Positions 20,778 through 63,829 of a stretch of DNA of 64,000 nt are shown piece by piece; the first letter of the stretch is position 1, and the number at the start of each line of letters is the position of its first letter. Both the position numbers and the translations under genes were made by a program. Source of the stretch: an uncultured Gammaproteobacteria bacterium (GTDB lineage Bacteria; Patescibacteriota; Microgenomatia; UBA1406; GWC2-37-13); assembly GCA_964387955.1 (NCBI GenBank), contig CAYLXX010000001.1, positions 11,993 through 75,992 on the forward strand, in the 5' to 3' direction. A model generated the notes under the pieces. It made no database searches. It had not been told where the DNA came from and saw only the letters and a list, made by a program, of their open reading frames with translations.

Positions 20778-20852
20778 GCCATCGTAGCTCACCGGCAGAG
20801 CAGGCGTTTCATAAGCGCTTGGTAGACAGTTCGATTCTGTCCGATGGCACCA
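20778..20852 (+). tRNA. tRNA with CAU anticodon (elongator Met, or Ile2 if lysidine-modified), encoded CCA
   Basis: Hand-folded cloverleaf. Acceptor GCCATCG/CGATGGC, D stem GCTC/GAGC, anticodon stem GGCGT/GCGCT with loop TTCATAA, T arm GACAG-TTCGATT-CTGTC, discriminator A, CCA at 20850..20852. Confidence 0.85.
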
Positions 20853-61159: not shown

Positions 61160-62191
61160 ATGGGAATTGCTTTGCCTTCTTTACTACTCTTCATTTTCGG
61201 TGCTTTTACCCTTCTTGGAGTTAAACCCGAGCTCTTTTTCAATCAAATCATTTTTTTTGTAATAGGAATAGGTCTTTATTTTTTTATTAAAAAAATGGGA
61301 TCGCACTTCTTCCGGATAAATGTGGGTTTTTTTTATTGGTTCTTTATTATTCTCCTTGTGGCTACTTTTTTAATCGGTATTGAAGCAAAAGGTTCTAAAC
61401 GCTGGATCGATCTCATATTTTTTAATTTTCAGGCCTCTGAGTTTTTTAAAGTATTTTTTTTACTGTATTTTGCCGATTACTTTTCTAAAAATAGATTGTA
61501 CGGTGACCAATTTCAGGCGTTTCTAAAAAGTTTACTAATTGCAGGAGTGCCAATTTTTATCATCTTTAAGCAGCCTGATTTAGCAACTGCGCTTACATTT
61601 ATCTGCATGTATGTTGTCTTATTGCTTTTTTCCAAAGTTCCAAAAGCGTATATTATCAATGTCGCTATCGTGACGATGTTTATATTGCCGCTGTTTTTTT
61701 TCCTGTTAAAAGATTACCAAAAAGCCCGCATTGTCGGCTTTCTTAATCCGCATGTTGATCAACTGGGAACTTCTTATAATATGACTCAAGCGATCATCGC
61801 AGTCGGTTCGGGTCAGTTTTTTGGCAAGGGGCTAGGTGCTGGTACACAATCAGGCCTCCATTTTCTCCCCGAAAACCACACCGATTTTGCCTTTTCTTCT
61901 CTTGTTGAACAATTTGGCTTTGTCGGAGGAGGGATCGTGATCTTGTTGTATGGTTTGCTGGCCTATAATTTTATAAAAAAAATTATCACGTATTTTTATG
62001 ATAGGAGTGAAGAGGGGAGATTTAAATTTTTGTTTACTTTGGGTTTTTTCACTTTTTTCGTGTTCCAAGTGTTGGTGAATATAGGTATGAATGTGGGGCT
62101 ATTGCCTATTGCTGGTATTACTCTGCCTCTTATTTCCTACGGCGGCTCATCGCTTGTAACCTGGGCCATTGGTCTGGCACTTCTGCCTTAA
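61160..62191 (+). CDS. rodA: SEDS family protein RodA-like
   Basis: FQASEFFKV, ENHTDFAFS, GITLPLISYGGSS. A TATAAT box (61148..61153) lies 6 nt before the ATG. Confidence 0.8.
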   Translation: MGIALPSLLLFIFGAFTLLGVKPELFFNQIIFFVIGIGLYFFIKKMGSHFFRINVGFFYWFFIILLVATFLIGIEAKGSKRWIDLIFFNFQASEFFKVFFLLYFADYFSKNRLYGDQFQAFLKSLLIAGVPIFIIFKQPDLATALTFICMYVVLLLFSKVPKAYIINVAIVTMFILPLFFFLLKDYQKARIVGFLNPHVDQLGTSYNMTQAIIAVGSGQFFGKGLGAGTQSGLHFLPENHTDFAFSSLVEQFGFVGGGIVILLYGLLAYNFIKKIITYFYDRSEEGRFKFLFTLGFFTFFVFQVLVNIGMNVGLLPIAGITLPLISYGGSSLVTWAIGLALLP

Positions 62192-62206
62192 AACGATCCT
62201 ATAATA

Positions 62207-62235
62207 TTGCAAAATTCTGACTTTTTGGCTATAAT
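62207..62235 (+). promoter_or_regulatory. sigma70-like promoter preceding a long untranslated leader
   Basis: TTGCAA (62207..62212), 17-nt spacer, TATAAT (62230..62235). The next credible start codon is about 280 nt downstream at 62521. Confidence 0.5.
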
Positions 62236-62334
62236 ATAAGCTTAGCAGTATTGCTTTCTTCAGCCACGATAGATGCCTTCTGGCCCCGGAAATCAATAGG
62301 GTTTTGCACCTTGATAAAACTAGGATGCTGCCTT

Positions 62335-62389
62335 AAGTGAAAGAGGCTAAAGGAGGGTATAATCTGCCTTTCTCTATTCTCTTTCACTT
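62335..62389 (+). promoter_or_regulatory. 11-bp perfect inverted repeat (hairpin) in the leader
   Basis: AAGTGAAAGAG (62335..62345) pairs with CTCTTTCACTT (62379..62389). An inner AAAGG/CCTTT pairing partly sequesters an AAGGAGG-like element and a TATAAT. Confidence 0.5.
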
Positions 62390-62520
62390 TAGTTGAATTG
62401 AAGCTTAAAAGAGCCTAGATTCACAACTTTCCTTTTGAAGGGATGAGGGCGGCCTCCAAACGGAAAATAACAGTGAAAGCGAACCTGGTAGTTAGCTCGA
62501 GGAAACGAAAGGAGACTAGT

Positions 62521-62871
62521 ATGGAAGAACTTACAGTACTAACCCCAAGTTATGATCGTCCGGTTATACATGTGCCGTTTGACGGTCAATTCGACACGAC
62601 ATTAGCTCGTTCGAAGGATACTACACTTCGTGCGATAGGTCGTTGGTCAGGCGAGAGCGGTGTCATCAATGTGACATTTCAGCTCAGAGCTTCTGATTTC
62701 CATATGGTGTCTGGGAAGCGCATCAACGTCAGAAAGATGCCACAACCCAAAGACCCGCGGCCGGTAACAAGTTACGGACGAACCACTCAAAGAGGAAACT
62801 TGAAGATGAGACTCAAGCCTGGTATTTACCAAGTTTGGTTCCATTCTCCAACAGACGAGATTGACGATTAA
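62521..62871 (+). CDS. orphan protein X1 (116 aa), no family recognised
   Basis: ATG at 62521 preceded by AAAGGAG (62508..62514). An in-frame ATG at 62443 would add a K/R-rich 26 aa but lacks a spaced SD. Lys/Arg-rich C-terminal half. Confidence 0.55.
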   Translation: MEELTVLTPSYDRPVIHVPFDGQFDTTLARSKDTTLRAIGRWSGESGVINVTFQLRASDFHMVSGKRINVRKMPQPKDPRPVTSYGRTTQRGNLKMRLKPGIYQVWFHSPTDEIDD

Positions 62872-62923
62872 AGTAAAGGACGAGCCGCCCTCTCCTTTTA
62901 CTTCTATGATAAGGAGTGAAGTA

Positions 62924-63316
62924 ATGTCTCAAACGACCTTGGACTACCAAGTCAAACTTTGGTGTTCTGATTGCCAAAAAAACGTCATAGTCACCAAGCC
63001 TGTAGGTTTGAAACACAATGCATATGTTGAGAAAGCCAATTGCCCAATATGCAATAGCTTTTATCCTTTGTCGGAGATCGCATGCCCGGACTGCCAATGC
63101 ACCACCATAGAAGCCTGGACACTCTGCAAAGGTCAATTAAGCCATGCACATTCTGAGCGAAAGCTTACTCACCAAGTAACTTTACCTACGAGCGTCGACC
63201 TATCTCACCATATTCGCCGTATCGAGATAGCAATGGTACTTATAGTCTTAGTGCTCCTGGCTCTCATAGCCTGGCTCGCTGCACAAGTTGCGCAAGGAGG
63301 TTTCACTGTTCCGTGA
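62924..63316 (+). CDS. orphan protein X2 (130 aa): Cys-rich zinc-ribbon N-domain with a C-terminal transmembrane anchor
   Basis: ATG at 62924 preceded by AAGGAG (62911..62916). CSDC, CPIC and CPDC plus two more Cys. TM segment IAMVLIVLVLLALIAWLAAQVA lies near the C-terminus. Confidence 0.6.
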   Translation: MSQTTLDYQVKLWCSDCQKNVIVTKPVGLKHNAYVEKANCPICNSFYPLSEIACPDCQCTTIEAWTLCKGQLSHAHSERKLTHQVTLPTSVDLSHHIRRIEIAMVLIVLVLLALIAWLAAQVAQGGFTVP

Positions 63317-63436
63317 TTCAAGGTGTGAGAGAGAACGTATTTTCTAAATATCAGATGGCATCTGGCAGTTGATTGCCATTGCAATCGCTCGTGGCCCAAT
63401 CAGCCCCAGAAATCCTTTGATATAAATACCTTCTCC

Positions 63437-63489
63437 TCTCACTTTTTAGGCTCAACTACGGTTGATTCCAGAAAGTGAGGATTTTTATT
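63437..63489 (+). terminator. possible intrinsic terminator after the orphan cassette
   Basis: TCTCACTTT (63437..63445) pairs with AAAGTGAGG (63472..63480), 8 WC plus 1 GU, followed by ATTTTTATT. The 26-nt loop is atypical. Confidence 0.3.
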
Positions 63490-63515
63490 GAAAATTGAAG
63501 GTTTTCAGGTATAAT
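63488..63515 (+). promoter_or_regulatory. sigma70-like promoter for rplU-rpmA
   Basis: TTGAAA (63488..63493), 16-nt spacer, TATAAT (63510..63515), then 8 nt to the ATG at 63524. Confidence 0.55.
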
Positions 63516-63523
63516 GTATACAT

Positions 63524-63829
63524 ATGAAATTAGCGGTTATTAAAACTGGTGGCAAACAATACTTAGTCCAAGAGGCCGATGAAATCGTCGTTGATATGCT
63601 GGAAGGCAAAAAAGACGAAAAAATCGAGCTGGAAACCTTGGCACTTATTGACGAAGAAACTGTCAAATTAGGCGACCCAGCTCTTAAAGAAGCTGTCACG
63701 GCCACAATTGTCGATCATATTAAAGGCGATAAAATCCGCGTGGCTAAATTTAAATCCAAAGTGAGATACCGTAAAGTTAGAGGGTTTCGTCCTCGACTGA
63801 GCAAACTTAAAATTGGTACAATAAAATAA
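63524..63829 (+). CDS. rplU: 50S ribosomal protein L21
   Basis: MKLAVIKTGGKQYLV and the C-terminal KRKVRGFRP-like basic region. Confidence 0.9.
   Translation: MKLAVIKTGGKQYLVQEADEIVVDMLEGKKDEKIELETLALIDEETVKLGDPALKEAVTATIVDHIKGDKIRVAKFKSKVRYRKVRGFRPRLSKLKIGTIK

Follow-up and report, generated by a model that had tools for sequence, protein, structure and literature searches.

The window analysed here, a 64,000-nt stretch of DNA, carries towards its right-hand end a 1.33-kb segment lodged between rodA, which ends at 62191, and rplU, which starts at 63524. This segment is a complete transcription unit, comprising a promoter, a long untranslated leader, two SD-led orphan genes (X1 and X2) and an intrinsic terminator, and it is followed by the native promoter of rplU (Table 1).

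Table 1. Features of the segment between rodA and rplU, in positions of the window
Feature	Position	Strand	Details
Genome-specific insert, 1.33 kb	62192..63523	+	between rodA and rplU
Insert promoter TTGCAA-17-TATAAT	62207..62235	+	TTGCAA 62207-62212, TATAAT 62230-62235; predicted start near 62242
Untranslated leader, ~279 nt	62242..62520	+	stops in every frame; all six codon scores negative
5' pyrimidine segment UUGCUUUC	62251..62258	+	predicted partner of the third octamer region (62475-62482), P = 0.93
Hairpin P1, 23 bp, 5-nt loop UAAUC	62332..62392	+	-26.5 kcal/mol; 12 + 2 + 9 bp
Possible internal -10 box (GGGTATAAT)	62358..62363	+	spans the P1 loop; would start transcription near 62370 (inferred)
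Third AGTGAAAG copy (AGTGAAAGCGAA)	62472..62483	+	complementary to 62377-62388 at 11/12 positions
SD AGGAG, 6-nt spacer and X1 ATG	62510..62523	+	AGGAG at 62510-62514; outside the folded leader domain
X1, 116-aa orphan, predicted all-beta	62521..62871	+	codon score +0.12
X2, 130-aa orphan	62924..63316	+	CxxC motifs, C-terminal hydrophobic helix; SD AGGAG 7 nt before ATG
Intrinsic terminator of the insert	63437..63490	+	hairpin, then AUUUUUAUU
Native rplU promoter	63488..63515	+	TTTTCAGGTATAAT 8 nt before ATG; kept at the insert's right edge

We examined the synteny of this region by locating rplU, which was found in 39 of 41 related genomes, and mapping IleRS, RodA, X1, X2 and L21 onto its flanks. 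The gene order ileS-rodA-rplU is retained in 21 relatives, drawn from the same genus and from many genera of the family and order. In 18 of these, the same genus among them, rodA and rplU are separated by a mere 27-93 nt, and the spacer usually contains TTTTCAGGTATAAT 6-8 nt before the rplU ATG. Neither X1 nor X2 is found at the rodA-rplU locus in any of the 21. The shortness of this spacer in the relatives, taken with the surviving rplU promoter (11/12 in a consensus scan and 11.9 bits on a matrix trained on the promoters of this genome), identifies 62192-63523 as an insert specific to this genome. Its GC content of 0.45-0.50 exceeds the genome mean of 0.40, and a search for paralogous copies in the same genome found none, leaving it single-copy. 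The insert and both of its junctions recur in an independent Logan assembly, on a 1,780-nt contig of SRR9179563 (L009) that differs from the window by two SNPs, one in rodA (62072 T>G) and one in the leader (62254 C>T); by exact-protein look-ups, this contig from the same organism is the sole other public trace of the organism.

With an empty orthologous site in the relatives, its own promoter and terminator, and an atypical composition, with a GC of 0.46-0.47 against 0.40 and an SD use unlike that of the host, the insert has the properties of a horizontally acquired autonomous gene cassette. It finds a parallel in the phage 'morons', which are autonomous promoter-gene-terminator units: like them, it is compact, is equipped with its own promoter and terminator, lies between conserved neighbour genes, and has a composition and translation signals unlike those of its host. 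Unlike them, it sits in a bacterial chromosome devoid of phage context, and comparison of the insert with phage and plasmid collections returned no match. Direct repeats at the borders were considered as possible insertion scars and dismissed, the best border match (62216-30 with 63437-52) being equalled in 41 of 500 shuffles.

The translation signals of the insert are best viewed in light of how genes are expressed in the rest of the genome. A -10 box terminating 4-12 nt upstream of the first start codon is found at 31% of the 506 long ORFs, as opposed to 5% of control ATGs, such that the tight apposition of promoter and ATG, noticed earlier within the window, extends genome-wide. The host promoters conform to an extended -10 profile (T-TG-n-TATAAT) in which a -35 signal is all but missing, and SD cores are not enriched, being found at 8.7% of long-ORF starts vs 9.4% of control ATGs and at only 12% of 251 tight gene junctions. 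Judging from these sequence patterns, the host appears to run largely on leaderless mRNAs. Many genes within its apparent operons also have their own TATAAT just upstream. X1 and X2, both of which are preceded by canonical SDs, are atypical for this host. With genes called in a rough manner, the non-coding gap of 329 nt upstream of X1 ranks at approximately the 95th percentile of the genome, and the leader does stand out by its length, as had been proposed. The original prediction also placed a TTGCAA-17-TATAAT promoter ahead of the leader; it is present, matching the consensus scan at 10/12 positions and scoring 11.8 bits on the genome-trained matrix, for which the median of the training promoters is 9.5, and it equals the best promoters of the genome in quality. 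RNA polymerase would accordingly be expected to start near 62242.

The two genes of the insert are orphans. Under a codon model trained on this genome, each of them scores positively in its own frame and in no other; a search of 5.8 billion proteins recovered only X1 and X2 themselves, and a HMMER search with X1 against 1.84 billion representatives yielded X1 itself and two artefacts from highly repetitive proteins. Pfam, PHROGs and PADLOC profiles gave nothing above their cut-offs, X1 having no Pfam match and the zinc-ribbon Pfam matches of X2 all falling below them. Single-sequence AlphaFold predictions render X1 as an all-beta sandwich, the best model having a pLDDT of 74 and the others about 50, and a comparison of the model with PDB folds produced no match at E <= 0.001; a weak resemblance to the TRAF/MATH-like fold (TM about 0.5) is not significant. 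The terminator that closes the unit is canonical, its hairpin (63437-63480; -20.0 kcal/mol, z = -6.2, 0 of 200 shuffles) being followed by a U-run. A type I toxin mRNA, which would call for a small hydrophobic toxin ORF (<60 aa) and an antisense RNA that overlaps it or lies nearby, was also considered and set aside: X1 (116 aa, all-beta) and X2 (130 aa) are a misfit for such a system, and no minus-strand promoter in the insert region scores above 5.7 bits on the genome matrix.

The region between the promoter and X1 had been described as some 280 nt without a credible ORF, and both the sequence and the codon scores bear this out; the stops and negative scores in all six frames likewise rule out a pseudogene. 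Between the promoter and the ATG at 62443 there are only the trivial frames MPSGPGNQ-stop and MLP-stop, neither of which is preceded by an SD, and the first credible SD-led start is indeed the one assigned to X1 at 62521. Translation from the ATG at 62443, which had been named as an outcome that would undo the idea of a leader, would lengthen X1 at its N terminus by 26 residues, basic in character, encoded in the last 78 nt. The reading frame does stay open from this codon, and in a genome that is not reliant on SDs the missing SD at 62443 is weak evidence. However, the extension has a codon score of -0.12 vs +0.12 for X1, it is the start at 62521 that has a canonical AGGAG, spaced by 6 nt, and even a start at 62443 would leave about 200 nt of the leader, all repeats included, non-coding. 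We regard this upstream start as highly improbable. In a separate observation, a CUG (62364) lying 7 nt beyond a perfect SD-like AAAGGAGGG (62348-62356) begins a frame of 10 codons (L/M-PFSILFHFS-stop); we found no signs that this frame is translated.

The one robust structural element of the leader is the hairpin P1, in which the SD-like element occupies the 5' arm, a TATAAT box spans the loop and the CUG frame runs through the 3' arm. It was first noticed as a perfect 11-bp hairpin with an inner pairing of AAAGG with CCTTT; both pairings are present, and they prove to be parts of a longer, 23-bp hairpin. Its outer arms, AAGTGAAAGAG (62335-62345) and CTCTTTCACTT (62379-62389), are perfectly complementary, and a perfect 11-bp inverted repeat arose in none of 300 dinucleotide shuffles of the leader. 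As a whole, P1 has a z-score of -5.6, with 0 of 200 shuffles as stable. Read from the minus strand it attains only -19.9 kcal/mol, the sense strand being 6.6 kcal/mol more stable because of G-U pairs, a bias that fits an RNA-level feature and hints at selection on the RNA. The octamer AGTGAAAG recurs once more, as had been pointed out, at 62472-62479. A repeated octamer alone can be attributed to chance (it is present in 166 of 300 shuffles), but the recurrence of a stem octamer is not so readily obtained (1 of 300). With AGTGAAAG/CTTTCACT occurring 48 times in the 1.06-Mb genome, the leader is the only place where three copies fall within 160 nt (144 nt here). Both the P1 hairpin and the three-octamer cluster exceed chance.

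Such a cluster might be read at the level of DNA, the three AGTGAAAG boxes then being operators for a protein that regulates the promoter or promoters of the insert rather than pairing partners in RNA. Its uniqueness in the genome would be in keeping with this, as would the perfect 11-bp arms, which are identical when read on either DNA strand, and the placement of the boxes on both sides of a possible internal promoter. Against it, the centre-to-centre distance of the inverted copies, 45 bp, would be uncommon in an operator, the insert encodes no regulator gene, and the inner stem relies on G-U pairs, which are meaningful only in RNA. Operators of this kind thus strike us as extremely unlikely.

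We next consider the fold of the leader as a whole, using the ensemble predicted for the transcript 62242-62560. In these thermodynamic predictions, which ignore proteins, ribosomes and folding kinetics, P1 has a pair probability of 0.97 in the full-length leader, and the whole-leader fold reaches -85.2 kcal/mol, with z = -1.9 on both strands. Pairing of 62251-58 with 62475-82 closes the leader into a predicted domain spanning 62242-62491. The leader SNP of the second assembly falls within this 5' closing helix, where it turns a predicted G-C pair into G-U; as one data point, it is compatible with the helix. The SD of X1 is predicted to pair in part with the start of the X1 coding sequence.

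The original prediction had seen in the repeats the layout of a mutually exclusive switch. In such a scheme a ligand, protein, tRNA or ribosome would shift the segment CUUUCACU (62381-88) between the copies of AGUGAAAG, thereby controlling X1-X2. The competing complementarity on which this idea was founded is real: the alternative helix is complementary at 11 of 12 positions, and the scheme can also draw on the sole cluster of its kind in the genome, with its three copies in 144 nt, on the rarity with which a stem octamer recurs in shuffles (one of 300), on the G-U pairs that favour the sense-strand hairpin, and on the AAGGAGG-like element 7 nt before the CUG (62364) of the 10-codon frame through the 3' arm. 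The exchange itself fares poorly. The alternative helix (62377-88 with 62472-83), a duplex of -12.1 kcal/mol, has P = 0.000 in the full leader and becomes populated (P = 0.85) only in a transcript starting near 62370; blocking the 5' arm of P1, or freeing its 3' arm, costs about 22 kcal/mol (from -87.6 to -65.1). The mean unpaired probability of the SD and AUG is 0.53 in the full transcript vs 0.48 in that from 62370. Given that the alternative helix is unpopulated and the accessibility of the SD unchanged, no expression platform is visible. Moreover, the sequence has no real U-run 3' of P1, and therefore neither state makes a canonical terminator.

In the classical riboswitch and attenuator platforms, too, one leader segment is complementary to two others, as CUUUCACU is here. 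However, unlike them, this leader has no conserved aptamer recognized by Rfam and no homologues, its alternative helix falls short of P1 by about 14 kcal/mol and stays unpopulated, and neither of its states masks the SD or builds a terminator. The genes downstream are orphans rather than metabolic or transport genes. Together with the lack of any conservation in the genomes searched, these points make a cis-regulatory switch improbable in our estimation. A leader-peptide attenuator was likewise rejected: the short ORFs are without SDs, the SD-like element precedes only the CUG frame, and no canonical terminator follows P1.

No recognizable RNA family had been discerned in the leader by eye, and systematic searches concur. 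At gathering thresholds, the only Rfam match in the entire window is a tRNA at 20778-20849; relaxing the cut-off to E <= 10 over 62100-63560 added three chance matches to miRNA and snoRNA families, far below their gathering scores, and an ARAGORN scan for tRNA and tmRNA returned nothing. Comparison of the leader DNA with 61 relatives and 400 genomes of the phylum yielded chance matches of at most 31 nt. The original prediction had named a lack of conservation of the pairings in homologous loci as grounds for refutation, and this lack is seen in the most extreme form, the entire stretch being missing from the rodA-rplU spacer of the 21 relatives; a riboswitch is recognized as a conserved element upstream of homologous genes with covarying pairs, and here there are no homologous loci in which to see one. 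With no homologues at hand, the missing covariation is not evidence against function. The emptiness of the orthologous site in the relatives does exclude a housekeeping RNA such as 6S, RNase P or SRP.

These results also bear on the idea of a stand-alone small RNA, transcribed from 62242 independently of X1, with its 3' end at P1, beyond P1, or past the 5'-3' closure near 62491. Such an RNA would be served by the strong promoter and by a predicted domain that leaves out the SD. Nevertheless, no terminator lies between the promoter and X1, the whole-leader fold departs little from expectation (z = -1.9), the region is neither conserved nor present in the relatives, which excludes a housekeeping RNA, and ARAGORN detects no tmRNA. 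Hence, a small RNA of this sort appears very unlikely.

The outer stem of P1 was pursued beyond the relatives by scanning genome, metagenome and viral collections for AAGTGAAAGAG-N20-45-CTCTTTCACTT with exact arms. The 47 genome, 63 metagenome and one viral hits include none with the interior or the context of P1. Instead, the scan brought to light a widespread set of long hairpins whose arms are built of tandem AGTGAAA(A/G) units; further copies of this unit precede the hairpins, and TTTCACT units follow them. Such hairpins are common in the Pyrinomonadaceae and also in a single Saprospiraceae MAG, with several copies per genome (loci L043-L086 and L088-L149, e.g. L047:3901-3956, L068:7324-7384 and L084:3685-3744), and ten of the loci, when scanned, had no Rfam match. 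The one hairpin checked for its context lies between convergent genes, and these elements are for this reason probably bidirectional terminators. They share with P1 the outer stem AAGTGAAAGAG...CTCTTTCACTT, with its purine-rich 5' arm and U-rich 3' arm, but differ in having other interiors, without homology to that of P1, and flanking T-runs or more units; furthermore, P1 is inside a transcription unit rather than at the end of a gene.

This resemblance feeds the main rival to our own reading, in which P1 would be a terminator-like hairpin, relic or leaky, left over from the donor DNA or the insertion event, with X1-X2 being transcribed mainly from a downstream start. The candidates for this start are the GGGTATAAT box (near 62370) and a weak TTGAAT-17-TAGATT at 62395-62423 (near 62430), and the functional leader would then measure only 90-150 nt. 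On the genome promoter matrix, the internal -10 box reaches 8.6 bits, close to the training median of 9.5, in a host whose promoters need no -35; the AAGTGAAAGAG...CTCTTTCACTT hairpins of other phyla look terminator-like, the checked case between convergent genes included; and the inner stem of P1, with its weak U-rich tail, was itself flagged as terminator-like by a scan. However, no real U-run comes after the hairpin, the upstream promoter has the better score (11.8 bits), and TTGAAT-17-TAGATT matches at only 8/12 positions, below the scan threshold. We consider a relic terminator unlikely, while giving it the first place among the alternatives.

In the interpretation we favor, with a probability of roughly 0.55, the leader is a structured 5' UTR that was brought in along with a foreign two-gene unit, its hairpin being either constitutive, as a stabiliser or damper, or a passenger. 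Under this proposal, a small and self-contained unit would have been acquired recently between rodA and rplU, with 62242-62520 as its untranslated 5' leader. P1 would form once transcribed and thereafter stay formed, with the polymerase reading through it; the rest of the leader would pack around it, the third copy of AGUGAAAG pairing with the 5' end, while the SD of X1, lying outside the fold, would be used directly by ribosomes. At most, P1 and the 5'-3' closure would then stabilise or dampen the mRNA in a fixed manner, and they could equally be passenger sequence from the donor. The mechanism is most likely constitutive rather than one of sensing. Two findings count against this interpretation: the genome-unique cluster of three octamers, which would not be predicted of a plain passenger leader, and the clearly greater stability of P1 on the sense strand.

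The closest parallels to the leader are found among the structured 5' UTR stabilisers, such as the leader hairpin of ompA (E. coli), the aprE leader (Bacillus) and the STAB-SD of cryIIIA. Those leaders, like the present one, are long and combine a stable hairpin with an SD-led gene; also common to both is a purine tract resembling an SD, placed ahead of the real one. Known stabilisers are located at the 5' end itself or very close to it, and the STAB-SD is unpaired. In contrast, P1 begins approximately 90 nt from the predicted start. A stabiliser specifically of the STAB-SD type was rejected, AAAGGAGGG being about 107 nt from the predicted start and paired within P1.

A bolder version of the regulatory view would hold the approximately 250-nt domain (62242-62491) to be a lineage-specific regulatory RNA, either a new sensor or a switch operated by ribosomes or proteins through the three AGUGAAAG/CUUUCACU segments. 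This we deem very improbable; if true, an operon of foreign origin with SD-led genes would be under the control of this RNA domain, in a small genome that otherwise works almost wholly with leaderless mRNAs. As a candidate regulatory RNA, the leader matters little: it comes from a single genome, has neither relatives nor a known family, and is predicted to affect neither the SD nor termination. More instructive is its context, in which a foreign unit, equipped with canonical SDs and preceded by a long leader, resides in a host of about 1 Mb that is largely leaderless and unenriched in SDs. Should it be expressed, the insert would be a natural test of how the ribosome and RNA polymerase of this host handle leadered, SD-dependent messages.

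Finally, two observations touch on how the insert may have come to occupy this site. When the insert promoter and the rplU promoter are anchored at their -10 boxes, 14 of 29 flanking positions are identical, a level that 1.8% of promoter pairs reach, and an alignment by eye of the two promoter regions (62207-62240 and 63488-63520) matches about 24 of 35 positions with one gap. This likeness in sequence is suggestive, and no more than suggestive, of the rplU promoter having been duplicated at the insertion. In addition, the three relatives outside the short-spacer majority (L019, L023 and L036) have longer rodA-rplU spacers, of 137-240 nt, and that of L036 contains a long GC-rich inverted repeat (CCACCCCCTGCCCCCTCCTTAGTAAAGGAGGGG ... 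CCCCTCCTTTACTAAGGAGGGGTTGGGGTGG). These longer spacers and the inverted repeat raise the possibility that the rodA-rplU site may be prone to small insertions.
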